DNA from: a virus
Lineage: Duplodnaviria > Heunggongvirae > Uroviricota > Caudoviricetes
IMG/VR virus record: IMGVR_UViG_3300045988_009603
Strand: one strand, 5' to 3'
Length of the DNA: 64,000 nucleotides
The position numbers were made by a program, and so were the translations under genes. Under the pieces are notes generated by a model. The model was not told the origin of the DNA. It searched no databases and saw only the letters and a list, made by a program, of their open reading frames with translations. Below, piece after piece: positions 179 through 34,911 of this stretch. The first letter of the stretch is position 1. Each line of letters starts with the position of its first letter.

Positions 179-964
179 TTAGTTCTTTGCGTCTAAGAAG
201 GTAACTTCCGGTGAAGAGAAGACCGTCTCGATATCCTCATCAGTTCTTGCATAGATATATGTATCTGCATCACTACCAAACGTTACAGCTATCCTGTGAT
301 TGCTCTTCGACAGGTGGGTAACTAGAGCGTTACTTAGAGACATCTTCTCAACCGGAGGGTTACTTTGATGTATCTTACCTTTTCTTCGTCTGAAGAGGGT
401 AACTGCATCCTCTGTGAACGTTACTACACCTGCAAAGTATTCTGGTTCACAGTAGTTATTCCAACCTGAGCGTAACTTGTGGTACATCTCTCCTTCGTAG
501 ACATACAGATAAACATCTACACTCTTCATCACCTGATTAATGATAACTGTGACGGCTTGAGGGTCTAGCCCACCGATACCTGCACCAATCATAGGTAACC
601 CAACTTTCTTCAACTGATTAACTTCACAGTATCTGTTAAGCTGTTTCAAAGATGACTCTAAAGCACTGTATCTGGCATCTTTACCAGTCTTAAGCTGAGT
701 GTAAAGATTAGCTATACGACCTTGTTTTAAACGTGCTACAGAGAAATTACCTAGTAAATTTTCACAGGGTTTGTGACCTATACCACCTGCATACAGATAA
801 ACTTCTGTATCAGTCTCATATGCTTTTGGGTAAAGTTTAGAAATCTTGTCAGCGATACCTGCACCCATTAAGTTCATACAGTTGCAACCGTGACCAATAA
901 TATCAAACTTACCTTTATCAAATGCGTCAAAGATATCACCTTTGATGATTTTTACAATACCCAT
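179..964 (-). CDS. TARG1-like macro domain protein (ADP-ribose processing) with unassigned C-terminal extension
   Basis: N-terminal ~155 aa carry macro-domain signatures KGDIF, GHGCNCMNLMGAGIA and LPMIGAGIGGLD, collinear with TARG1/OARD1-type macro domains; C-terminal ~100 aa unassigned. Confidence 0.55.
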   Translation of the reverse strand: MGIVKIIKGDIFDAFDKGKFDIIGHGCNCMNLMGAGIADKISKLYPKAYETDTEVYLYAGGIGHKPCENLLGNFSVARLKQGRIANLYTQLKTGKDARYSALESSLKQLNRYCEVNQLKKVGLPMIGAGIGGLDPQAVTVIINQVMKSVDVYLYVYEGEMYHKLRSGWNNYCEPEYFAGVVTFTEDAVTLFRRRKGKIHQSNPPVEKMSLSNALVTHLSKSNHRIAVTFGSDADTYIYARTDEDIETVFSSPEVTFLDAKN

Positions 965-965
965 A

Positions 966-1166
966 CTAATAATGCTCCCAACGTTGCATGTCTTCGGATG
1001 GTTTTACACGGTTACCTTCATGGTCTACATAACCTGCACCACAACCTTCACAGATAACTGGCATAGCCGAGCCAGCTTCAAACTCTTCTTTGGTGAAGAG
1101 ACCTTTCAAGTCCCCTGTATCAACACCAAAATGTTCTATTGCACACTTCTTGCAGAAATCAGCCAT
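966..1166 (-). CDS. small zinc-ribbon protein
   Basis: Start taken at internal Met (MADFCKKC...); CxxC...CEGCG cysteine pairs; tracked ORF 966..1244 trimmed. Confidence 0.3.
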   Translation of the reverse strand: MADFCKKCAIEHFGVDTGDLKGLFTKEEFEAGSAMPVICEGCGAGYVDHEGNRVKPSEDMQRWEHY

Positions 1167-1386
1167 GAATAATTGCCTCTTGAATGATGATACCTTTACC
1201 ACAACGACTTTTAAAGTCTTCCAATGGTTCAGAGATAAAGCCACGTAAGCAGTCAGTGAATACTAAGTTCTTCCGGTAAGCTATCACATCATTTGCTGTA
1301 AATGGTATGACCTTATTTCGTCCAATGAACACCGCTGACCTGATAAGTTTCCGTGTCTTTTTATCTCTGGCTAGTATTACTTTCAT
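1159..1386 (-). CDS. hypothetical protein
   Basis: 75 aa ORF in minus-strand operon, slight overlap with neighbours. Confidence 0.3.
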   Translation of the reverse strand: MKVILARDKKTRKLIRSAVFIGRNKVIPFTANDVIAYRKNLVFTDCLRGFISEPLEDFKSRCGKGIIIQEAIIHG

Positions 1387-1687
1387 AGTTTACCTTCTCA
1401 GTTAGCTCGTATAAATCAACATGCTCAATACTATCAATGTTGATACCAATCTTTTTGAAGCGTTCTATCACTTCGTTGTCAGTCATCCATATCAGACACC
1501 AATGATTATGGATGGATTCTTCAAGAAGGTCAACACAATCTTTAAAAGTTTTTGTATCACTCCTTGTTCCGACTACTGCGATTGTTCCATACAACCACTT
1601 ACCATTACCATAAGATACTTGTGCTACGCCAACTTCTTTATCTTTCTCGTAGTAAACAGCTACAAAGTCTCTTCCATTAATTTGCAT
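1361..1687 (-). CDS. hypothetical protein
   Basis: 108 aa ORF, tightly packed in minus-strand operon. Confidence 0.35.
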   Translation of the reverse strand: MQINGRDFVAVYYEKDKEVGVAQVSYGNGKWLYGTIAVVGTRSDTKTFKDCVDLLEESIHNHWCLIWMTDNEVIERFKKIGINIDSIEHVDLYELTEKVNYESNTSQR

Positions 1688-1689
1688 AG

Positions 1690-1959
1690 TTACTTCCTCG
1701 TTTTAAGAACTGCTAAGATTTCTTTAGAATCTGGTAAGAACCATGTGTAGTGATTCTCTTTGATTTCTGGATGAGTGTCAACCTTTATTTTGCACTCTTT
1801 ACCAACATGCTTAAGCTGTGCTGTGACACCTTGCATAAAGATATGACACATCACATTATCCATAATGGTTGGTGAGAAATCAATTCGCATATAAGTTTCT
1901 TTTGGTCGTGGCAACAGTAAGTAACCTTCTACATAGAAAGTGTCTTGATTCTCTGTCAT
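1690..1959 (-). CDS. hypothetical protein
   Basis: 89 aa ORF, 3 nt after upstream gene. Confidence 0.35.
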   Translation of the reverse strand: MTENQDTFYVEGYLLLPRPKETYMRIDFSPTIMDNVMCHIFMQGVTAQLKHVGKECKIKVDTHPEIKENHYTWFLPDSKEILAVLKTRK

Positions 1960-2994: not shown

Positions 2995-3690
2995 TCAATG
3001 TTTAACTAACATGGTTTTAATGTGTGGAAGGATTCTGTTTACCTTCTGAACATTCTTCTCTGTATCTTCTATAAAGCATACTATATTAAAGTAAGGAAGA
3101 ATGCAAGACTGAATCATCCTAACTTTTAAACTTTCTGCACTTATAGAGTTAGTTCCAAAACCACGCATGAAAAGCATGTAATCATGCTCTATGTTATGCC
3201 TTAAAAACATCTCAGTAGGTATTCTCTGAGATTCACCTCTTGCTGTCAAGAGTCCAATGGCAGCATGATTAGCAATTGCATCAATAATACTAAAAACATA
3301 CGTTGGTTTTGCTCTTACAGAGTCAAGAAGATTAGTGTACTGTGAGAATGACCCATCAGTCAATTCCGTTGAGCAATCTTCGTGATTAAAATTTGTAAGA
3401 ACACCATCAATATCTGCTAAGATGAGGTTACCTTTTTCTACAAGGTCTTTATTGACTATGACTAAACTGTCACGTCTTACACCTACAGTTTGTCCAGTCT
3501 CTTTGTCCACAACGTTCACAATTGGTTGTGATGTGTGGAACTCTTCAAGTGAACATACAACTTCTCTTGCAGTGTCTTCAAAATCCCTGCACTGTTCTGG
3601 AGTCCATATACAGGAATCAAGACCTAACTCATGAGGATGCAAGTCGTAAGCATGACACAGTACTTCATCAGACTTTCTTAATTTTTTCAT
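2995..3690 (-). CDS. HAD-superfamily phosphatase-like protein (possible nucleotidase)
   Basis: Motif LILADIDGVLTNF (DxDG HAD motif I) and downstream GLLTARGE; N-terminal ~90 aa unassigned. Confidence 0.4.
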   Translation of the reverse strand: MKKLRKSDEVLCHAYDLHPHELGLDSCIWTPEQCRDFEDTAREVVCSLEEFHTSQPIVNVVDKETGQTVGVRRDSLVIVNKDLVEKGNLILADIDGVLTNFNHEDCSTELTDGSFSQYTNLLDSVRAKPTYVFSIIDAIANHAAIGLLTARGESQRIPTEMFLRHNIEHDYMLFMRGFGTNSISAESLKVRMIQSCILPYFNIVCFIEDTEKNVQKVNRILPHIKTMLVKH

Positions 3691-5506: not shown

Positions 5507-7873
5507 TTAATCGTAAATTGTAGTCCCTTCTGGAACACACTTCACATCAAAGCCTAAGAATTTACTCACTTCAATGGGTGACACTTTATTCCAATCTAAA
5601 TGAGAAAGCAAGAAGTTTTCTTGTTTTCTTTTTGAAAGATAGTTTGTCACCTTAATAATCATACGGTCACCAGCTTTCTTAATTTTCTTGTATAGCTTTG
5701 TATCGTTGTCAAGGCATTCTTTCAAAGTTTGCAACCGACTAATAGTGTAGGTGTATGCAAACGGTGCAGCAACGTATTGGATTTTACCAAACATTGCCTC
5801 AACAGCATCTTCATTACCTTCTAAGAAGATAGTTTTGTTTGTGTCTCGTGAATAGCAATAGCCACGAGAAATCTTCTTGTTATTGAACGTAAAGTTTCTG
5901 GCAATAATCCAACTGCTTGTAAGGTCTAGAACACCATTCATATAGATACGTGTCATATACCTGTTATGATTAATCCAGTGAACATCAGTTAAGCTGTCGT
6001 TCAAGAGTTTCTCATCTACTTCAATCCAGTCTTCTGGTATCTTTTTCCAATTTGCTTTTCGGAAAACATAGACTGTCTTTTCAATGACATTGGCAACTGA
6101 CTTAGCTACATCTTCTGGAGACGAGCAAAAACATTCACCATCAACAGTATCACCTACTGCCTTGATATAAAGTTGAGGCTCTTCAATTGTGTCTAAGTCT
6201 TCTGACACCTCTTTATAGGAAGCTACACCTTCTGCTGGAACAGCTTTCCAGAGTTTTACAACACCTCTTACAGCTTCTTTACGCTGATAATGATGTTCCT
6301 TATCAGACATCTTCACAATCTTTAACAAGCTTTTATCAAGTTTGTGCAGATTGATTAGGTCGTCTAACTCTTTTTCAGTCGAGAATACAAAGACAATACC
6401 ATTATATCTGTGAAACAGACTTGACTCACTGGCATAGTCTCGACATGCACCACGCAAGATTTGGTTGCGTCCTACAGTCTTCTCAGTACCATTTTTATTG
6501 CGACGGTCATTGATAACAAACAAAAACTGTTCAATTTGGCTTTTGCGCATTGCGCCAAAGATATTGAACATACTTGCCTCTTGAGTGTAGGAAAGTGCTG
6601 TTGCACGAATCTTACTTTCTAAAGAGTTGAACTTAACATAAGCAACTGGATTATAAAGATAATCTACTTTAGGGATGTTGTTTCCGTTCCTATCAACCTT
6701 AATATTACCTTTACCATCACGTTCATAAATAACTGAGCCGTCTTCTGCGTAGATAATTCCACGACGAATGTTTAGTAATTCTTCTTCCAGAGAATCAAGC
6801 TTAACACCACCCCACTCTAGCTTTGGACACACAGCATTAAACATCTCTCGTGAGTTCAAACGTAACTCAGCATAAGCCTGTGCAGCATCCATGAGTGTAG
6901 GTTGGCTATTAACTTTCTTGATAACATCCTTTGTAATGGCTTCAGTTATCTTTTTAGTAGCCTCAATGATAACATTTTTTGTCGTGTCATTCATCTGTAA
7001 TGCTTCACGAGAAGCTGCGATAGCAACTGAACCAATAGGCATATAGATGTTTACAAGGTCTACGCTCCTACGGAAAAATTCTGGCAAGACTTTGAAGAAA
7101 TCATCACCAAGTAATGCTTCCATGTTAACAGGGTATGCAATGTTACCCATCACCACATTAAACTCTGTCCTGTTACCACTAGAACGCCAACTTTGCTTAT
7201 GAATCATAGCATCATAAACACCTTCTTCACGGGCAATGACGTTCATATCTGCTAATACATCGTCATACTCGATATTGCTTTCTGGTTTTACAGCAAAGTA
7301 TGAGTATACGTGACCAGCTTCTTCAAAGAATTTTGAGATACGATGGTCAGCAACTGCTACACGTACAGCTAAACCATTAGGTTCTTTTGTTGGATTGGTG
7401 GTCAGCTTAGTTACTTGAGGGATACCATTCTCAAGATAAACAGAGTACTTATTAACAACACCATCAACATAACTGGACACTGTGAATGACTGAGCAATTG
7501 CAAATGGGGATTTTGAGCCGATACCCATTGCACCAATGTAGTCATTAGAGTCATTCTTCGTAGAAGCCCCGTAGTTTAGATACAAACTCATAACTTTATC
7601 ATGAGTCAATCCAGTTCCAAAATCACGAACTTCAAAGTAAGGCTCAAAACGAGTAGGTAAATGCACATGGAACGGGATGTTCTCTTTTCCAGCTTCTTTC
7701 TGAGCATCCACTGCGTTACATGACAGTTCACGAATAACTGCCCTTTCTTTAAAGGTGTATACACCAGAACTCAAAAGGCTGAACATTTCGGGTGTCATTG
7801 TAATCTGTGCTTGAGACGTCTCTAAAGAAGTTGAACTCTTAATCACTTCTGCGTGGTCATTTACCATGCGCAT
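5507..7873 (-). CDS. rIIA: rIIA-like protein (HATPase_c-type ATPase domain)
   Basis: N-terminal GHKL-type motifs (ELSCNAVDA, DFGTGL, GAMGIGSKS); 788 aa. Confidence 0.6.
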   Translation of the reverse strand: MRMVNDHAEVIKSSTSLETSQAQITMTPEMFSLLSSGVYTFKERAVIRELSCNAVDAQKEAGKENIPFHVHLPTRFEPYFEVRDFGTGLTHDKVMSLYLNYGASTKNDSNDYIGAMGIGSKSPFAIAQSFTVSSYVDGVVNKYSVYLENGIPQVTKLTTNPTKEPNGLAVRVAVADHRISKFFEEAGHVYSYFAVKPESNIEYDDVLADMNVIAREEGVYDAMIHKQSWRSSGNRTEFNVVMGNIAYPVNMEALLGDDFFKVLPEFFRRSVDLVNIYMPIGSVAIAASREALQMNDTTKNVIIEATKKITEAITKDVIKKVNSQPTLMDAAQAYAELRLNSREMFNAVCPKLEWGGVKLDSLEEELLNIRRGIIYAEDGSVIYERDGKGNIKVDRNGNNIPKVDYLYNPVAYVKFNSLESKIRATALSYTQEASMFNIFGAMRKSQIEQFLFVINDRRNKNGTEKTVGRNQILRGACRDYASESSLFHRYNGIVFVFSTEKELDDLINLHKLDKSLLKIVKMSDKEHHYQRKEAVRGVVKLWKAVPAEGVASYKEVSEDLDTIEEPQLYIKAVGDTVDGECFCSSPEDVAKSVANVIEKTVYVFRKANWKKIPEDWIEVDEKLLNDSLTDVHWINHNRYMTRIYMNGVLDLTSSWIIARNFTFNNKKISRGYCYSRDTNKTIFLEGNEDAVEAMFGKIQYVAAPFAYTYTISRLQTLKECLDNDTKLYKKIKKAGDRMIIKVTNYLSKRKQENFLLSHLDWNKVSPIEVSKFLGFDVKCVPEGTTIYD

Positions 7874-7901
7874 AATACTTTCCTCTTAGTTTACTGTTAA
7901 A

Positions 7902-8078
7902 TTACTTATTAAACATTTTACCAGAACCACCACATATAGGGCAACAGCCTGTTCTTGTATAACCTTCCCCATTACAGAAGTCACATTTTTTGTGCTCTGC
8001 GTAGTACTTGCAAAGAAGGTAAACAAACACTGCTACACTACCAAGTGACAGTAAAATTTCTATCCAATATGCTTGCAT
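7902..8078 (-). CDS. small membrane protein with DnaJ-type CxxCxGxG zinc finger
   Basis: 58 aa ORF absent from the >=60 aa track; GAGGTGA RBS 5 nt upstream of ATG; N-terminal TM helix then CDFCNGEG and CPICGGSG; 19 nt overlap with upstream gene. Confidence 0.35.
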   Translation of the reverse strand: MQAYWIEILLSLGSVAVFVYLLCKYYAEHKKCDFCNGEGYTRTGCCPICGGSGKMFNK

Positions 8079-14759: not shown

Positions 14760-15317
14760 TTATTTTTTCTTACAATTGTCAAAATGATATCGAGTCATGT
14801 TACCAGCACCACCAGTCATACCACAATGAGGGCAAGTTTTCTTTTTCTTTGGCTTTTTTCCGGCTTCTGACATCTTCTTCCTTGTTTCTATAGACCTTTT
14901 ACAACCTTTTGATTTTGTATTGCCTATTTGAGATTCTCCTAACCGTCTTCGATGTTCTTCAGTGAAAACCCTACCTTTATTCACAATAGATAGAGCTTTC
15001 GAGTTCAAAGCCCTTACCTTTTCATAGTCTCTGGATGATATTTTCCTATCTAGGCCATCATGGGCTAACCTGTTCCATGCAAACCATAACTTATGATTGT
15101 TTGGATACATCTTAACCAGTAATTTATGAGCTATATAATGCTCTCTAGGTGTAAGTAAAGCAATATTATCTCCACTAATTTTATCGCCACCTAGACATAC
15201 TGGTGTGATATGGTGTCTTTCATAACCCTTACCTTGACATTTGTAGTATGTAAGAGGCACACCCCTTTCAGAATGTGCCTTCTTAATAATTGCATTATAT
15301 ATTAGTTCGTAATTCAT
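14760..15317 (-). CDS. free-standing HNH homing endonuclease
   Basis: HNH core ERHHITPVCLGGDKISGDNIALLTPREHYIAH; Lys-rich C-terminus with CPHCG; alternative start at 15368 overlaps nrdD 3' end. Confidence 0.6.
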   Translation of the reverse strand: MNYELIYNAIIKKAHSERGVPLTYYKCQGKGYERHHITPVCLGGDKISGDNIALLTPREHYIAHKLLVKMYPNNHKLWFAWNRLAHDGLDRKISSRDYEKVRALNSKALSIVNKGRVFTEEHRRRLGESQIGNTKSKGCKRSIETRKKMSEAGKKPKKKKTCPHCGMTGGAGNMTRYHFDNCKKK

Positions 15318-15324
15318 TTGTATG

Positions 15325-16272
15325 CTACATAGAAACCCTATCCTTAATTTCTGCCATCTTAGCGTCATTCATTCGAGACTGACCTTTAATTTTTGTGAAT
15401 GACAAGTACCCGCACACCCTGTTAATCACAGAGATGTCATGTGAATGGCAAACCTCACATTCTTCAACATCAGCCTTTGGTCTGTTACCACAATGTTCAC
15501 AGATTGCTAAGTCAAAGTTAAGTCCCTGATAGAAGCCTTTCAACATCCCTCTTGTAATACAACTTTTAAGTGCTGGTAAGTTTTCTGGGTTAGCTACCCT
15601 TACATACTGGATTCTGCCACCTCTACAAATATGGAAGAATGGTTCTTCTAAGTCCTGCTTCTCAAATGGTGAGATATCTGCTGCAACATTCATATGAAAA
15701 CTGTTTGTAAAGTATTCCTTATCAGAAACACCTTTGATAACGCCAAACATATCTCTGAACTGTTTTAGTTGAGTCCCACAAAGTGATTCTGCTGGAGTAC
15801 CATATACCGCATATAAGAAGCCATCTTCATTCTTAAACTCTTCAGTTTTCATGTTAATGTATGCCAGAACATCGTATGCAAAACTACAGCTTCCAACTTC
15901 ATGAAGTCGTTTACCCTCAGCAAGAACAGATAACTCATCAAGCGCAGTAACACCAAAAGAAGCTGTGAAAGACTTCACAATATCCCAGCCAACCTTGTCA
16001 GTAGGTTTCTTAGTCCCTTTGTACAGACCACCTTGTGTGAATGCAAGAGGGTTAGAGCTTGCTGGCATATTAGCAATCATTTCGTAGCGTTTCTTGTGGA
16101 AGCTGCGAATCATCTCTAGGTACTTATCAAGCTCTTTCCAGAAATCTAAGCCATTCTCTTTAGAATACTGGTAAATCATTGGTAAGTTCAAAGATACAGC
16201 ACCAATGTTAGCACGACCTACATAAAACTCTTCACCATCTTCGTTATGGTATGGTGATAAAAACGCTCTACA
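15325..16272 (-). CDS. nrdD: anaerobic ribonucleoside-triphosphate reductase, exon 2
   Basis: Glycyl-radical motif RVCGYLS and C-terminal Zn site CEHCGN...CEVCH; frame is open upstream of the tracked start back to the proposed 3' splice site. Confidence 0.7.
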   Translation of the reverse strand, partial: CRAFLSPYHNEDGEEFYVGRANIGAVSLNLPMIYQYSKENGLDFWKELDKYLEMIRSFHKKRYEMIANMPASSNPLAFTQGGLYKGTKKPTDKVGWDIVKSFTASFGVTALDELSVLAEGKRLHEVGSCSFAYDVLAYINMKTEEFKNEDGFLYAVYGTPAESLCGTQLKQFRDMFGVIKGVSDKEYFTNSFHMNVAADISPFEKQDLEEPFFHICRGGRIQYVRVANPENLPALKSCITRGMLKGFYQGLNFDLAICEHCGNRPKADVEECEVCHSHDISVINRVCGYLSFTKIKGQSRMNDAKMAEIKDRVSM

Positions 16273-17014
16273 CTTGTTGTTCAGGTAAGTTCGCTACGCT
16301 TACCCCGCTTTATTCAAGCTGCTTACTGTCACCAGTAAGTCCAGACTATATCTTCTACTTATTTCTAAGTAGCGTACCATTTCGAGTCGCTTGACCCTAC
16401 ACCGCTACATTCATCACGGTTAGTCGTTTGGCATTTAGATGTACTCAAATTCATGTTCAAAGTTATTATATTCTTTTACACCCTTCAGTATTGAAGAGAT
16501 AGTCTTGCGATTATACCCAAGTATCTTGGATAACTCTCGTATCGAGTTCGCAACAATAACTTCTTTTGTTACTTTGTGTGTAGCCTTCACAGCATATGAA
16601 CGCTTACAAAACTTGTAGCAACCATTCTCATAACCTTCTTTAACATTCTCAGAATGAGTTCCCCATTCTAAGTTAGAAGCATGGTTATTCAGTTTGTTGT
16701 CATCTTTGTGTTTTACAATTGGAAGATTGTTCGGGTTAGGTACATATTTCTCAGCAACTAACCTATGAACATACATGTCACGATTCTTCTTACCGTAAAA
16801 CCTCACTTTCATATACCCAGTGTTGGATTTCCACTGCTTAAGTTCTACACCATTTTTCCTAAAGACTCTTCCATCTTCAGTAACATGATAATTTGGCATG
16901 TAATACTCCTATGTTATATAGTTTCTTACATCGTACATCATTTAGCACAGGATTGTCTACATCTGTAGAGTTTCCCTGTTTAGGCACGTTTTAGATGAGC
17001 TATAGAGCTTGTTA
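16273..17014 (-). mobile_element. group I intron in nrdD carrying an HNH endonuclease ORF
   Basis: Minus-strand P-like (AAACAGGGAAAC), Q-like (AATCCTGTG), S-like (AGATATAGTC) elements; P1 pairing exon ATGGGT with intron GCTCAT giving U.G at the 5' splice site; intron ends in G; spliced junction reads ...ISPMG|CRAFLSPY... Confidence 0.65.
16435..16899 (-). CDS. intron-encoded HNH-type homing endonuclease
   Basis: Motif HRLVAEKYVPNPNNLPIVKHKDDNKLNNHASNLEWGTHSEN; located between intron Q and R elements. Confidence 0.65.
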   Translation of the reverse strand: MPNYHVTEDGRVFRKNGVELKQWKSNTGYMKVRFYGKKNRDMYVHRLVAEKYVPNPNNLPIVKHKDDNKLNNHASNLEWGTHSENVKEGYENGCYKFCKRSYAVKATHKVTKEVIVANSIRELSKILGYNRKTISSILKGVKEYNNFEHEFEYI

Positions 17015-18211
17015 ACCCATCGGTGAAATTACCTTGCCAGAACGCTCAAAAGCCTCTGCTACAGCACCATGACCAGATACACTTAAGAAATCTGGATACA
17101 TAGCTTTAGAGCAACACTCTATAGCTTTTTCAAACAACCTTGCTTGGCATACATCAAGCTTATGTCTTGTCTCTTCATAGATATACACAAGTTTAGGGAA
17201 CACCACAGGTTTTTTGCTTTTACCTTGCCCATTCATTCTTACATTAAGAATTGTATTAGCAATCATAAACTGAAGACGGTTATCTTCATTGTGCATATCT
17301 GGTTCCAGCAAACCAAATGTCAGAGTAGTAAATGCAAAATCACCGCGACTGCAAGGAACAGTGTTAAGTTTCATTTCAAGAGATTGGAAACCCTGTGTTA
17401 ACTCATTCTGTAGTTGTTCCATTACGTAATTATAGTGTTGCTCTTTAGGGATTCCGTACTCTTCAGCTTTCTCTGAATGGTACACTAAAGACTTCTTAGC
17501 ATACGGTACAAGCACCTTATCAATCTCTGCTAAAGTAAATCCACCAAATTGCTGTGCAGTTGCTGAAAGAACTACATCACCAATAACCTGTAAGGCTGAC
17601 AGCACAGACTTTGGTTCACAGTATTCAATGCCAGACATTTCAAAGCCACCTTTTAGTACTTTACCAATGTCAAACAGGCAACAGTTGATACCACCAAAAA
17701 TTAGGTCTCTTAAGTCATGGATGTAGATAAATCCTTTTTCAATGGCTTCAAGTTCCTCTGGTGTTAAATGGTACTGTTTAAAGATTTCTTTAGTCAGGTA
17801 ACCACGAATAATTGAACCTTTTGTAGAAATTAAACTGCTGTCAAAGTTAGCATTTTCACGGTCACCTAAGAAGAGTGTGTCTTTAGTCTTCTGGTAAAGC
17901 TCATCCCAATTTTGAGCAACCTCTTTACGGTAATTTCTATATGTTGAGTAAGACTCATAAATCTCGTGATTTACTTCTGCCAAAGCACCCTCAACAATGC
18001 TGTGAATATCGTTTACTGAGATGAGCAAATTATTCTGCTTAGTGGACTTTACCAGAATCCTCATAAATGCTGATTCAAGAGCTTGGGTAACATCTGGTGG
18101 CAGTTCTTTATATCCAACCCTGTTAGCTGACTTAGTTACTGCTGCTAAAACTTTTTTGATATCCGGTTCTTCAAGTGAGCCATTCTTTTTAATAATTTGT
18201 ACTTTGTTCAT
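17015..18211 (-). CDS. nrdD: anaerobic ribonucleoside-triphosphate reductase, exon 1
   Basis: 399 aa ORF read as the N-terminal part of NrdD; its tracked stop lies inside the intron. Confidence 0.7.
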
Positions 18212-18230
18212 TATTGCCCCTTTACATGCT

Positions 18231-18256
18231 AAAAAGGTCTCCGAAGAGACCCTTTC
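18231..18256. terminator. bidirectional hairpin terminator (GGTCTC-CGAA-GAGACC)
   Basis: Perfect stem-loop with flanking A-run and T-run. Confidence 0.4.
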
Positions 18257-18259
18257 ATT

Positions 18260-18466
18260 TTAAATCTTTTTAGAAAACTTCGAAAAGAGTTCTCTTAGTT
18301 TTTCAGTGATACCTAACTGTATTTCTAATATTTCAAAGATAACCCATAGTAACATGGCTCCGAACAACGAACCTTGTTCAAAATCAGTAAATAGGTTAAC
18401 AACAAGCATACCAATCACAATAACTGGTGCATCAACAACCAAACCTTCCCAAAGGCGTTTAAGCAT
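18260..18466 (-). CDS. small membrane protein
   Basis: 68 aa, two hydrophobic segments. Confidence 0.3.
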   Translation of the reverse strand: MLKRLWEGLVVDAPVIVIGMLVVNLFTDFEQGSLFGAMLLWVIFEILEIQLGITEKLRELFSKFSKKI

Positions 18467-24000: not shown

Positions 24001-24498
24001 TCAAGCACAGTTTGCTTTCATTACCTTATGGATTCTTTTTTCAGCATCTTCATAAGTTTCTTTAGTAATAAACTTAATTGCTGCAATATTGGCATTGTAG
24101 AAGAGTCTGAGCTTAGAGTCAATCCTTTTTGTCATTACATCGAATTTATGTTGGAGGTTTGCTTCACCATAAACTAGGCCACCTTTCGTGTAGTAGGTTT
24201 GGATAATGTAAAAGTCAAAAAATTCCTTTCCAAAGCTCTCGATATCTTTTTTAATATACTCAGAAGAAGTCTCATAAGTCATCCAATCACTCTCCTTAGT
24301 GACTACCTTCTTCCGAGTCTTGCCAGCAACTTTTCTTTTGGTCACACTATTAAGCTGTTTCTTTCCTATGTAATATTGTCCGGTTTTCTTACAGTGTACT
24401 AAATAGACAAAACCAAAATGTTTAGTGGGGTCAACTTCCCCACATAAAGATACCCAATGACCATAGGTGGGACAATTGCCAAATCCTTTAATCTTCAT
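24001..24498 (-). CDS. GIY-YIG family endonuclease (free-standing)
   Basis: N-terminal FGFVYLVHCKKTGQYYIGKK matches GIY-(10-11)-YIG. Confidence 0.5.
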   Translation of the reverse strand: MKIKGFGNCPTYGHWVSLCGEVDPTKHFGFVYLVHCKKTGQYYIGKKQLNSVTKRKVAGKTRKKVVTKESDWMTYETSSEYIKKDIESFGKEFFDFYIIQTYYTKGGLVYGEANLQHKFDVMTKRIDSKLRLFYNANIAAIKFITKETYEDAEKRIHKVMKANCA

Positions 24499-31151: not shown

Positions 31152-31407
31152 GTAAGCCTCTTTTAAGTAACTATTAAGTTTTAATCTTTTATCTTAACGT
31201 ATTCTATACGTTATACTTTAAAGCTTTTTAAAAGCTATTAAATAATCTTTTAAGAGTTTTAAAGTAACTGTATAGTTAAACTGTTAAGTAACCTTTTAAG
31301 TAAAAACCCACTTCGCAAAGATTAACACCTTGTCAAGTACATTGTCAACTTGCTTTTTATAATTTTTTGCAGTAATGTATGAGGTTAATGAATTAGAGGG
31401 AGTACAA

Positions 31408-33550
31408 ATGGAAAACGTAGATTTTAAAAACTTACACTTAGTTGGTGATACAGAAACTGATGGTTTACTCCTTGAGTTCACTAAAGTCCACGTCATGGCT
31501 TTCGCAGACTATAAATCTGACGATGAAGAGCCACCTGTATGGGTCTTTACAGATGAGCCTATCCTCGGTCACAAGTATACCAAGTACATTAAAGGTGGTT
31601 TGCGTGAAGGTATTGAGTTTGCGTTAAAGGCAAAACGGCTTTGCATCCATAATGGTCTGGGGTATGACTGGTGGGTTTTCAATCACATTGCACCTGATTT
31701 GTGGAACTTTGATAATCCAAAGTGTAAGCCGTGGAGTAATTTCTTTCAGGATTCTCTTATCCAGTCTCGTGTTCAGTGGATGGATAGACCAACTCCAAAA
31801 GGCTATAAAGGTGCTCATGGCTTGGCAGCATGGGGTGCTCGTGTTGGTGTACGTAAACCAGAGATTGAACATTGGGGTGTGTGGAATGCAGAAATCTTCA
31901 CTCGTGTTGTAGAGGATATCCGTATTAACGCCAAAACTAAACGAGCACTGGATAATGAATATCTCAAGTTAAAGAAGTGTGGTATAGACACTTATGAAAC
32001 CTATATGCGAGCTAAAGAGACATCTTTCTGGATGAGTCAACAAGCTATTAATGGTTGGAAAGCTGATAAGGAGCTTATGGAGTTCCATGTAAAGGAACTT
32101 GACAAGTTGACTAATGAGCTTGCTTCAGAAGTTGAACCACACCTTCCACCAACTATTAAGACCAAAGGTAAAGTCACTGGAGAAGAGTTTGCAAAAGCTT
32201 GGAATGAGTATGTTGAAGCGTTTGGTCATGCAGATGGACTGAAAAGAATTACCAAGTACCCTAAGACAAAGTATCGTCAGCAGGTACGTAACGGTGAGAT
32301 GCAGACATATGAAATCAAGCCATTTGGTAAGCCAACTACAAAGATTTTTAACATTGAAAAGCGGAATTGCTATACACCAACCAACACTGTAACTGGCGAA
32401 GAGTACAAAGAAGGTTTTGTAGCAATGAAGGATGCTCGTGCAATTTGCAATGAGTTGAATGCAAAGATTGGTAAGAAATGCAAAGACTGGAAGCCAGTAA
32501 AAACAGTCAAAACTGTGAAGTACTATAACAGTCACGTTGTTAACCACTTTGAACTTGAGTCAAGTCGCTACACAGGATTGATTGATGCACCATATACACC
32601 AATTGAGTTTGAAGTTTCTCGTATGACTCAGGTAGCAGTTGTTAAAGACTACTTGAAATCAGTTGGTTGGATTCCAGATGACTGGAACTACAAGAAAGAC
32701 TCAGACGGTCGCCCTGTCAAAGTTTGTCGTTTCAAAGACAATAAAAAGATGATTACAAAGCATCCTAAGTGGCAGGAGATGGTTGAGCGTTGTGGATTGA
32801 GCTATGTTGAACATGAAGGTGTACAGTACATTGAGCATAACTGGTCTGTGAAGAAGTACACAGATTTGCTTGAACCTTGTCTGATTAGGACTTCACCAAA
32901 ACTTACTGAATCATCTTATGATACGATTGAAGGTGAGCTTGGACAGAAGATTGCTAAGTACTACACTTTGATGCACCGACGCAGAACTATTGAGAACTCA
33001 AAGGATGATGAAAAAGGTTGGTTGAACCAGATTCGTCCTGATGGTCGCCTTAGTGCTGGCGCAATGGTGTTTGGTACTTCAACTGGACGTATGACACAAT
33101 ATGGTATTGTAAACGTACCGTCTGGCGCTGCTGTCTATGGAGCACCCATGAGGGAAGTTTGGACTTGTGAAGAGGGTACTAATATTGTTTCAGCCGACAT
33201 GAATAGCGCCCAACTTGTGCTACTGTGTAACTTTATGGGTGATAAAGATTTCACTAAAGCGGTGACAGAGGGTAAAGAAGAGGTTGAGTTTGTTAAACAA
33301 GATGATGGTAGATACTATTGCAAACATTTTGACCAGTATCTAAACCCAGCTATTGACAAGTATTTACATTATGATTCGGAAAATGACTTATACGTGGTGT
33401 ACTCAGGGACTGATGCACATACTTTAAATAGTATCTACTTCAGTCTTAATAAAGAGGAAGACATCTTGACGTGTCGAGCTACTCAGGATACAAATCTTCT
33501 TCAAGAAATTAGTAAAGGTCGTAAGAAAGCCAAAAATGGCATTTATGCGT
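31408..33550 (+). CDS. DNA polymerase (family A), exon 1
   Basis: GAGGGAG RBS before ATG 31408; 3'-5' exo motif VGDTETDGL; motif A IVSADMNSAQL; start of motif B RKKAKNGIYA; exon end set by intron P1 pairing. Confidence 0.75.
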
Positions 33551-34354
33551 CAGTGGCGCATGTAAAACGTTGTGAATTGCTGGAAGCCTAAGTCTGTAAA
33601 GATATGGTAATCAGCAGCGAAGTCTCTGTTAGGACTCCTAAAACAAAGGAGAGAGAGACAATGGCAGGTTACGAAGAGAGATTATGCACTGAGTGTGGCA
33701 CGGAGTTTAAACCATACCAATACAATCAGAAACGGTGCAGAAGCTGTGTATTAAAATTTGACAGAAGGGCAGAACACAGGGTTCTTACTAAGAAATGCCC
33801 TAGCTGCGAGAAGGTGTTCATGCCGAGAACAGCAAGGCAAGTTTATTGCTCTTCACATTGCGGTGAGAAAGGTAGAGTTAAAAATTACTACCTAAGAACA
33901 TATGGCTTGGAAAGGGAAGAGGTTGAAGCTCTACTCCGCAACTGTGATTACAAATGTCAAATTTGTGGCGGTGAAGGTTTTATCATGAATGGTTCACGAC
34001 ACAAGGCTAAACTTGTTGTTGACCATGACCACAAAACCGGAAAGGTAAGAGGTATGCTATGCCACAATTGCAACAGAGCTTTGGGGTTGCTTGCAGATAG
34101 CGTTGATAATATGCAAAGAGCAATTGACTACCTAAGCAAATAATATAATTGTAGAGATTCCTAACAGAGAAACGTTCAGAGACTATCGAAAAGCATACTT
34201 AACGTATGAACTGAGTAGAGTAGGGTGGTAAGCTAATGACCATCCCCAAGTGCAACGGTAGCACCAATGCTACGTGATATAGTCCGACACTCCGTAGAAA
34301 TGCGGAGAAGTTCATAAGAGAACTGGTACACCTTGCGAGTGTATTGACCAGATG
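33551..34354 (+). mobile_element. group I intron in DNA polymerase gene with HNH endonuclease ORF
   Basis: P (GAATTGCTGGAA 33574-85), Q (AATCAGCAGC 33609-18), R (GTTCAGAGACTA 34174-85), S (GATATAGTCC 34276-85); P1 exon ATGCGT pairs intron GCGCAT; ends in G 34354; exon lengths sum to 2700 nt. Confidence 0.75.
33661..34143 (+). CDS. intron-encoded HNH endonuclease
   Basis: AAGGAGAGAG RBS; Cys-rich N-terminus; VVDHDHKTGKVRGMLCHNCNRALG HNH core. Confidence 0.7.
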   Translation: MAGYEERLCTECGTEFKPYQYNQKRCRSCVLKFDRRAEHRVLTKKCPSCEKVFMPRTARQVYCSSHCGEKGRVKNYYLRTYGLEREEVEALLRNCDYKCQICGGEGFIMNGSRHKAKLVVDHDHKTGKVRGMLCHNCNRALGLLADSVDNMQRAIDYLSK

Positions 34355-34911
34355 TATTGTTCGGGGCTGGCGATGAGAAATTTGCTAAGACGATTAAAGC
34401 ATCTACAACTGAGGAAGGTGCTTTAACTAAGCAAACATACTTTGTACGCCTCCCTAAAATTAAGAAGTTGATAGATGATTTAGAAGCAGACTTCAAAGCC
34501 ACTAAGAAGGCTCTTGAAGAGGTATTTGGTAAGACTGCTGCAATCTCTAAAGGGGGGTTTGTAAAGGTTGCTGGAGCTTGGTTGTGGTGCAAATCTCCAC
34601 ATAAGTTATTGAATTATTTGCTCATGGGTTCGGAAAGTCAGGTTCAGAATGAAGCCATCAACCTTGCTTGTAGAAGAACTTGTGAAGAAGGTCTTACAAA
34701 GTTGAATGGTCGAAAACCAGCTATTGGTGCTAGATTGCTTTTGGCATATCACGATGAGAATAGTTGGGAGTGTCCAGAAGACATGACGCAGGATGTTAAA
34801 GCAGTAATTGACTGGATGTATGGTCAAGCATCAAGAAATTTAGGGCTTAAGGAGGAAACTCTTGTAACTGGCACTGGTAAAGTTGGTAAAAATTGGCTTG
34901 AGGTACACTGA
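34355..34911 (+). CDS. DNA polymerase (family A), exon 2
   Basis: Completes motif B (LFGAGDEKFAKTI) and carries motif C YHDE; tracked ORF at 34357 begins on a TTG, not an independent gene. Confidence 0.75.

Follow-up and report, generated by a model that had tools for sequence, protein, structure and literature searches.

A probable mobile group IA2 intron with an I-HmuI-type endonuclease gene in the nrdD gene of a Felix O1-like phage

Mobile group I introns that carry their own endonuclease genes have been classical phage elements since their description in T4. Two T4 introns of subgroup IA2 are the closest well-described systems for the element analyzed here: the nrdD (sunY) intron, which carries I-TevII, and the td intron, which carries I-TevI. 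On the protein side, the nearest described enzyme is I-HmuI, from the DNA polymerase intron of SPO1, a strand-specific nicking enzyme that acts just downstream of the insertion site; its relatives include I-BasI and I-TwoI. Within the Felix O1-like phages the literature is brief. The Felix O1 genome paper reports no introns in that phage (PMC3185647), the UAB_Phi87 paper attributes a ‘split’ in nrdD to a homing endonuclease (PMC4837284), and the genome announcement of Meda describes nrdD as interrupted by an HNH endonuclease and mentions ‘another intron’ in the polymerase gene (PMC6486253). Annotators have joined the nrdD exons in the Meda and ECGD1 records, and the nrdD intron is in this sense already recognized in close relatives. 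Our search of the literature on introns and self-splicing in Felixounavirus, Ounavirinae and Felix O1 found no paper on the class, structure, insertion site or population states of the intron.

Here we analyze the nrdD locus of a 64,000-nt stretch of DNA from a tailed phage (IMG/VR record IMGVR_UViG_3300045988_009603), hereafter the window. Its nrdD gene is divided by a 742-nt insert that resembles the T4 sunY intron in host gene, in the guide sequence GCUCAU and in a layout that lacks P2. The 3′ half of the core is 77% identical to that of sunY, and the two share P3–P9, P7.1, P7.2, P9.2 and a tail of the form CUGAACA...G. They differ in site, since the sunY intron splits the codon for Tyr180 whereas the window intron lies about 110 codons downstream, and in endonuclease, which is a GIY-YIG protein encoded 3′ of P9 in sunY and an HNH protein encoded in the P6 loop in the window. 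The td intron is alike in its core (about 71% identity over 160 nt), in having its ORF in the P6 loop and in starting with UAA, but differs in its P2 hairpin, its guide sequence GCCUGA, its host gene and its GIY-YIG endonuclease. From these sequence comparisons we consider it highly probable (about 93%) that the insert is a mobile IA2 group I intron that splits nrdD and encodes an I-HmuI-type HNH endonuclease. Biologically this would be a textbook case that holds no surprise.

The divided nrdD gene and its insertion site

The nrdD region of the window shares 93–95% identity with many Felix O1-like phages (genus Felixounavirus) of Escherichia and Salmonella. The initial annotation placed nrdD in two ORFs 742 nt apart, and the coordinates agree:

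18211..17015, minus strand: nrdD exon 1, 399 codons, encoding the ATP-cone and the N-terminal part of the NrdD barrel
17014..16273, minus strand: nrdD intervening sequence, 742 nt
16272..15325, minus strand: nrdD exon 2, 315 codons plus stop, opening with TGT (Cys400) and holding RVCGYL

The minus-strand ORF at 18211..17012 covers the first 399 residues of NrdD and ends in a TAA directly after ...CCG ATG GGT, so that the stop behind exon 1 consists of intron nucleotides 1–3. Exon 2 opens in frame at 16272 with TGT AGA GCG... and closes with its stop at 15325. Joining 17015 to 16272 reproduces the proposed junction, ...ISPMG|CRAFLSPY..., and yields a NrdD of 714 aa with the glycyl-radical motif RVCGYL near its C-terminus. 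Against Pfam NRDD, the joined product matches in one stretch (model positions 1–560 of 562), in addition to the ATP-cone.

Intron-less relatives confirm the division to the base. The phages heid and wV8 read ...CCGATGGGT|TGCAGAGC... across the site, with TGC after the junction and zero bases between the two sides, and in both nrdD is annotated as a single CDS of 2145 nt encoding 714 aa, the length of the joined product in the window. Because these alleles run continuously across the junction, the limits of the insert are exactly 17014..16273. One T can be assigned to either side of the junction, and the choice made here is the only one under which the exon ends in U and the intron in G.

The insertion site falls between Gly399 and Cys400, which align to Gly289 and Cys290 of T4 NrdD. 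We take Cys290 of the T4 enzyme to be the cysteine of the thiyl radical, situated at the finger-loop tip; the ribozyme is located at the most conserved codon of the enzyme. In Felixounaviruses, which are widely used for biocontrol and therapy, nrdD would be read as one functional 714-aa gene, where most GenBank records instead show two fragments and a stray endonuclease.

Predicted ribozyme structure and splicing

Outside its ORF, the insert can be assigned to the helices of a group I ribozyme as follows:

16273..17014, minus strand: predicted group I intron, subgroup IA2 (T4 sunY type), starting UAA... and ending ...CUGAACAACAAG
17020..17015, minus strand: P1 5′ strand ATGGGT, the last six bases of exon 1
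17008..17001, minus strand: P10 intron strand GCUCUAUA, pairing with the first 8 nt of exon 2
17000..16995, minus strand: internal guide sequence GCUCAU (P1 3′ strand), the same as in T4 sunY
16947..16988, minus strand: 5′ half of the core, with the P3 5′ strand, P4 and P5
16988..16983, minus strand: P3 5′ strand CGUGCC
16979..16975 and 16951..16947, minus strand: P4, ACAGG/CCUGU
16969..16965 and 16960..16956, minus strand: P5, UCUAC/GUAGA
16933..16939, minus strand: P6 5′ strand GAUGUAC, opening a 488-nt P6 loop that contains the endonuclease ORF
16444..16438, minus strand: P6 3′ strand, formed by the last ORF codons, GAG UAC AUC
16322..16425, minus strand: 3′ half of the core, with P7, P7.1, P7.2, the P3 3′ strand, P8 and P9
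16425..16421 and 16348..16344, minus strand: P7, GACUA/UAGUC
within 16322..16425, minus strand: P7.1, ACCGU/GCGGU, and P7.2, GGGUC/GACUC
16378..16373, minus strand: P3 3′ strand GGUACG
within 16322..16425, minus strand: P8, CUACUUA/UAAGUAG, and P9, CUUACUG/CAGUAAG
16273..16304, minus strand: P9.2 hairpin, GGUAAG/CUUACC, and the conserved 3′ tail CUGAACAACAAG
16272..16265, minus strand: P10 exon strand UGUAGAGC, the first 8 nt of exon 2

The helices present are therefore P1, P10, P3–P9, P7.1, P7.2 and P9.2, with P2 absent. AUGGGU and GCUCAU pair as A-U, U-A, G-C, G.U, G-C and U.G, the last of these at the splice site, and the intron ends ...CAACAAG, with the omega-G at 16273. The P1 pairing between exon ATGGGT and intron GCTCAT, its U.G and the terminal G were all found as the initial annotation had claimed. 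P1 is kept in seven of nine aligned homologues; the two exceptions, td and Aeromonas TS9, have P2 and are misaligned there.

The structure was evaluated on an alignment of nine cores from which ORFs were excised (window, momo, RPN213, ECGD1, A141, F100, T4 sunY, Aeromonas TS9 and T4 td). The intron of phage TH58, described below, is absent from this alignment because its 3′ end was not located in its locus. RNAalifold, run on the nine cores with no structure supplied, returned P1, P3, P4, P5, P6, P7.1, P7.2, P8, P9 and P9.2; 33 of the 64 pairs carried compensatory changes. We also counted the group I model itself, with P7 as a pseudoknot, against controls in which pairing partners were slid by 1–3 columns and against 500 shuffles. 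Paired cells made up 97.6% of 544 across the nine cores, compared with 36–42% in the slid controls; both sides had changed in 30 of 61 pairs, and none of the 500 shuffles reached the observed measures. P7 is invariant in the alignment (5 of 5 pairs), which is compatible with the structure but uninformative, so that this helix lacks covariation support. Folded as a single sequence, the ORF-excised window core has a z of −3.9 and forms the same helices plus an 8-bp P10.

Homology to described introns points the same way. In distant blastn searches, the last ~160 nt of the insert matched the 3′ half of the td intron (~71%) and of sunY (77%), and the same segment also matched introns of Vibrio, Aeromonas, rV5-like and phiKZ-like phages. 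Local alignment of the window intron gave z values of 36–49 against sunY, td and TS9. The order of elements is shared with sunY throughout, starting with the guide sequence, a UAAAA joiner, P3, UAAA, P4 and P5, continuing through CAAUCC, GCUAAAU, P6, UAAAUGCC.AAC, P7 GACUA, the P7.1 loop GAUGAAUGUA and P7.2, and ending with P3′, P8, AAGAUAUAGUC, P9 (GUGA loop), P9.2 (loop ...AGCGAA) and the tail CUGAACA...G. Both P7.1 and P7.2, which lie between P7 and the P3 3′ strand, covary in the nine cores, and under the Michel–Westhof classification these hairpins together with homology to the T4 introns mark subgroup IA2.

Scores against the Rfam group I model divide according to the allele scored. At gathering thresholds the whole window has no Rfam match. 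A permissive scan with RF00028 (Intron_gpI) matches 16502..16322 at 35.4 bits against a threshold of 50 (E-values 4e-7 locally, 2.4e-5 window-wide), with a second fragment over P4–P6 at 16979..16905. Alleles of the same intron that lack the ORF score above the threshold over model positions 1–253 (P219, 55.7 bits; RPN213, 60.4 bits), and the window core is about 97% identical to these; elsewhere, ECGD1 scores 70.4 bits and T4 sunY 105.3 bits. The window falls below 50 bits because the 488-nt P6 loop with its ORF splits the model. The Rfam check on the initial annotation is thus formally a miss for the window and positive for its ORF-less counterparts. Its assignment of the insert to group I is well borne out by the sunY and td homology, the covariation, the ORF-less Rfam scores and the presence or absence of the insert at precisely the predicted ends.

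The fold, together with homology to introns of demonstrated self-splicing activity, leads us to expect splicing of this one. In the pathway we propose, the nrdD transcript would fold into a P3–P9 core with P7.1, P7.2 and P9.2 extensions and no P2, and P1 would arise from pairing of the guide GCUCAU with the AUGGGU that closes exon 1, placing U.G at the splice site. An external guanosine would attack the 5′ splice site; P10 would then form between GCUCUAUA and UGUAGAGC, the sequence that opens exon 2, and the 3′ OH of exon 1 would attack after the terminal G. The predicted ligated-exon junction is ...CCGAUGGGU|UGUAGAGCG..., in an mRNA for the 714-aa NrdD. The UAA at intron nucleotides 1–3 would keep ribosomes out of the ribozyme core.

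The intron endonuclease and intron states in Felixounavirus

The P6 loop holds one ORF:

16899..16435, minus strand: intron ORF, putative I-HmuI-like HNH endonuclease (HNH_3), 154 aa plus stop

An AGGAG ribosome-binding site lies 6 nt upstream of its ATG, and its stop codon falls in J6/7. Residues 43–86 match Pfam HNH_3 (40.2 bits against a cutoff of 24.8, E-value 2.7e-10), and there is a weak match to NUMOD1, a helix-turn-helix domain. Residues 3–140 align to I-HmuI (PDB 1U3E; E-value 1.3e-10) with the residues of the H...N...N motif matched. The Pfam match and this homology agree with the initial annotation, which had the intron carrying an HNH homing endonuclease. The likeness to I-HmuI and its relatives extends over the full length, from the HNH_3 catalytic motif to a C-terminal helix-turn-helix-like module, and includes their being encoded within introns; the differences lie in the target gene and in the intron. 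Searched with tblastn, the protein belongs to a large family of I-HmuI/I-BasI-like phage HNH enzymes. Matches of at least 80% identity come from 61 records, all of them Felixounaviruses, and outside that genus identity reaches ~47% at best, in an rV5-like phage. By analogy with I-HmuI, from which a strand preference and cut site are also taken, the protein would be expected to cut or nick intron-less nrdD. A promoter and terminator scan of 15200..18400 found four promoter-like sites, fewer than the 8.5 in shuffled sequence, and is therefore uninformative on how the endonuclease is expressed.

The distribution of the intron within the genus is consistent with mobility. A 500-nt query made of the joined exon ends retrieved 236 phage records. 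An evenly spaced sample of these contained 59 informative records, of which about 38 are intron-less, 10 have an ORF-less intron and 11 have an intron with the ORF; these proportions agree with 61 full-length matches to the intron and 61 close matches to the HNH protein. The window insert is 99.2% identical to that of phage Andreotti. Inserts at the identical point measure 316 nt (P219, momo and ph2-2), 292 nt (RPN213) or 742 nt (the others). In the 316-nt form, ATG CCA AAT continues in frame into the final nine codons of the ORF, leaving a 12-codon mini-ORF, and the 292-nt form has different deletion end points. Since the ORF-less forms are internal deletions with different end points, there were at least two separate losses of the ORF, both of which spared the ribozyme. 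As further details of the 316-nt form, AAT is a microhomology at the deletion junction, and momo additionally lacks the ATG.

The exon flanking the insert on one side also separates the two kinds of allele. Some 10–12 synonymous differences within the first 54 nt of exon 2 distinguish all seven intron-plus from all six intron-less alleles compared, and neither the last 90 nt of exon 1 nor exon 2 beyond position +55 shows such a split among these 13 alleles. A one-sided co-conversion tract of ~54 nt in exon 2 indicates homing. The tract carries TGT rather than TGC, which completes P10, and it may in part be due to selection, favoring P10 pairing or resistance to self-cleavage, instead of pure co-conversion. 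The locus nevertheless presents what is looked for in a mobile intron, namely presence or absence at one precise site together with co-conversion of a flanking exon.

On family membership and these population patterns, mobility may be pictured as a cycle in which the HNH endonuclease would nick or cut intron-less nrdD alleles in mixed infection, and repair would copy the intron, with ~54 nt of donor exon 2, into the recipient. The ORF would subsequently be lost by deletion and the ribozyme retained.

Other readings of the locus have to be set against this evidence. The nrdA gene of Aeromonas phage Aeh1, split by mobE, is reportedly a case of genes in pieces, and nrdD could likewise have been split by a free-standing HNH gene into halves that are translated separately and reassemble. 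Many GenBank records, with two nrdD CDSs and an HNH gene, are annotated in this manner, and the UAB_Phi87 paper puts it in such terms (PMC4837284). What lies outside the ORF, however, is a complete and covarying group I core, and ORF-less alleles keep an intact ribozyme of 292–316 nt, unlike what a simple gene insertion would leave. Moreover, the junction offers exon 2 no start codon: the earliest are a TTG at 16191 and an ATG at 16179, about 27–31 codons downstream, and a product begun at either would be without the Cys400 loop. We regard separate translation of the halves as extremely unlikely. An intein or other protein-level insertion might come to mind because inteins are frequent in ribonucleotide reductase genes, but an in-frame TAA immediately follows exon 1, the ORF is out of frame with both exons and adjoins neither of them, and Pfam gave HNH_3 and NUMOD1 alone, with no intein domains; we give this reading no weight. 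Both are rejected on sequence grounds.

It is also conceivable, if very unlikely, that the insert is a group I derivative that no longer splices and that nrdD is a pseudogene. Loss of nrdD may be tolerable because the phage encodes the aerobic NrdAB, with nrdA and nrdB just upstream. The score of the window below the Rfam threshold would fit this reading as well. Yet all helices are intact in the window sequence, its core is nearly that of the ORF-less alleles that pass the threshold, both exons are open and their joined product is a full-length NRDD, and several phage lineages have kept the intron while accumulating compensatory substitutions. Read as a mobile IA2 intron, the locus offers the stages of a homing cycle within one genus: the empty site, the intron with its endonuclease, and the intron after endonuclease loss. 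Felixounavirus would thus be a convenient natural system for the study of intron homing outside T4; it opens no new question.

Related introns and other endonuclease genes

Introns at the same ...MG|CR... site, with the same guide and core, occur in other phages. ECGD1 (Justusliebigvirus, rV5/phi92-like), whose nrdD is annotated as a joined CDS, differs in having lost most of the ORF, of which a remnant is left, and in a longer P6, of 13 bp. ‘Campylobacter’ phage A141, a Vequintavirus, has a homologous HNH gene in P6, and its P6 is also 13 bp; Vibrio phage F100 likewise has a homologous HNH gene in P6. In both A141 and F100 the last codons of the HNH ORF form the P6 3′ strand, as in the window. 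The helices of the same-site introns differ from those of the window by compensatory changes.

Two of these records have peculiarities of their own. In F100, nrdD contains two insertions (locus positions 225..1383 and 1891..~2727), each with an HNH ORF, the second being the same-site homologue; the nrdD CDSs are broken again at 3303/3304 in what resembles a frameshift. The records named ‘Campylobacter phage A141’ (MG065672.1) and ‘A132’ (MG065664.1), both marked UNVERIFIED, are a Vequintavirus and a Felixounavirus-like genome, respectively, and the host label is doubtful because sequence and taxonomy line disagree with it.

Scanning IMG/VR for the core motifs yielded 21 contigs, comprising nine Felixounavirus and four rV5/phi92-like contigs (the latter at the same site), two contigs of ~43 kb (same site), five Aeromonas phages with the intron in another gene, and T4. 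The two ~43-kb contigs (locus positions ~7800..8050 and ~6850..7100) have an intron of the same family at VTPMG|CRAYLSPW; their exon ends ...AUGGGC and the guide is GCCCAU, implying a C-G pair at the 5′ splice site in place of the near-universal U.G. A junction pattern, ATGGGT-N6-20-GCTCAT-N-TAAAA, was tried as an alternative probe of IMG/VR and discarded, as it hit at least 119 stretches, with an intron core in one among the matches listed and the rest due to chance.

The alignment of NrdD proteins places the sunY and window introns, of common ribozyme type and guide, at different sites that both end AUGRGU. One possibility, which we hold tentatively and with the odds against it, is that a single sunY-type ribozyme lineage with guide GCUCAU colonized two nrdD sites, AUGAGU| (Tyr180) and AUGGGU| (Gly|Cys400), and acquired unrelated endonucleases in different loops. 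If so, the two introns would be a natural record of guide-directed intron transposition, through either reverse splicing or integration at an ectopic site, with endonucleases captured independently afterward, and the later spread of the Cys-site version, over no fewer than four unrelated lineages of phage, would add to that record. A separate observation concerns Escherichia virus TH58 (Mosigvirus; locus positions 1490..1700), where an intron at the sunY site has a P7–P7.1 segment, AACGACTAACCGTGATGAATGTAGCGGTGTAG, identical to that of the Felixounavirus intron, while its remaining helices differ. This identity suggests recombination between introns at different sites.

The window contains a second interrupted gene and further endonuclease candidates:

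31375..33591 and 34357..34911, plus strand: ORFs of a family A DNA polymerase, interrupted gene
33551..~34351/34354, plus strand: putative polymerase group I intron, with a partial RF00028 match of 24.1 bits
33604..34143, plus strand: polymerase-intron ORF, 179 aa, Endonuclease_7 (T4 endo VII-like)
24001..24498, minus strand: free-standing SegE-type GIY-YIG endonuclease, 165 aa (Pfam PF19835, E-value 9e-28), in the replication gene cluster
14760..15368, minus strand: candidate free-standing HNH-type homing endonuclease, with NUMOD3 and a weak, below-cutoff match to colicin/pyocin DNases

In the polymerase gene, the exon end AUGCGU pairs with GCGCAU (33556..33561), and GTTCAGAGACTA and GATATAGTCC elements are present. 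The initial annotation had suggested that the nrdD and polymerase introns are related, from a segment TAAAACGT shared just after the guide sequence. This kinship is not supported. With 1.81 occurrences expected in the window, the 8-mer is present three times, a count equalled or exceeded in 30 of 100 shuffles; it is made up of the conserved UAAAA joiner and the opening 3 nt of P3, and among true relatives this helix covaries freely. Aligning the two introns gave no significant match (best blastn E-value 0.25), and their local alignment z of 5.2 compares with 36–49 for true relatives. The endonucleases are of different families, HNH_3 and Endonuclease_7, and the P4–P6 regions also differ, so that what the two introns have in common is the generic UAAAA joiner.

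The ORF at 14760..15368 resembles a free-standing homing endonuclease gene in its position directly downstream of nrdD, overlapping the nrdD stop. A counterpart is absent at this place in the intron-less heid and in the ORF-less momo, and relatives annotate it as a MobE-like homing endonuclease.
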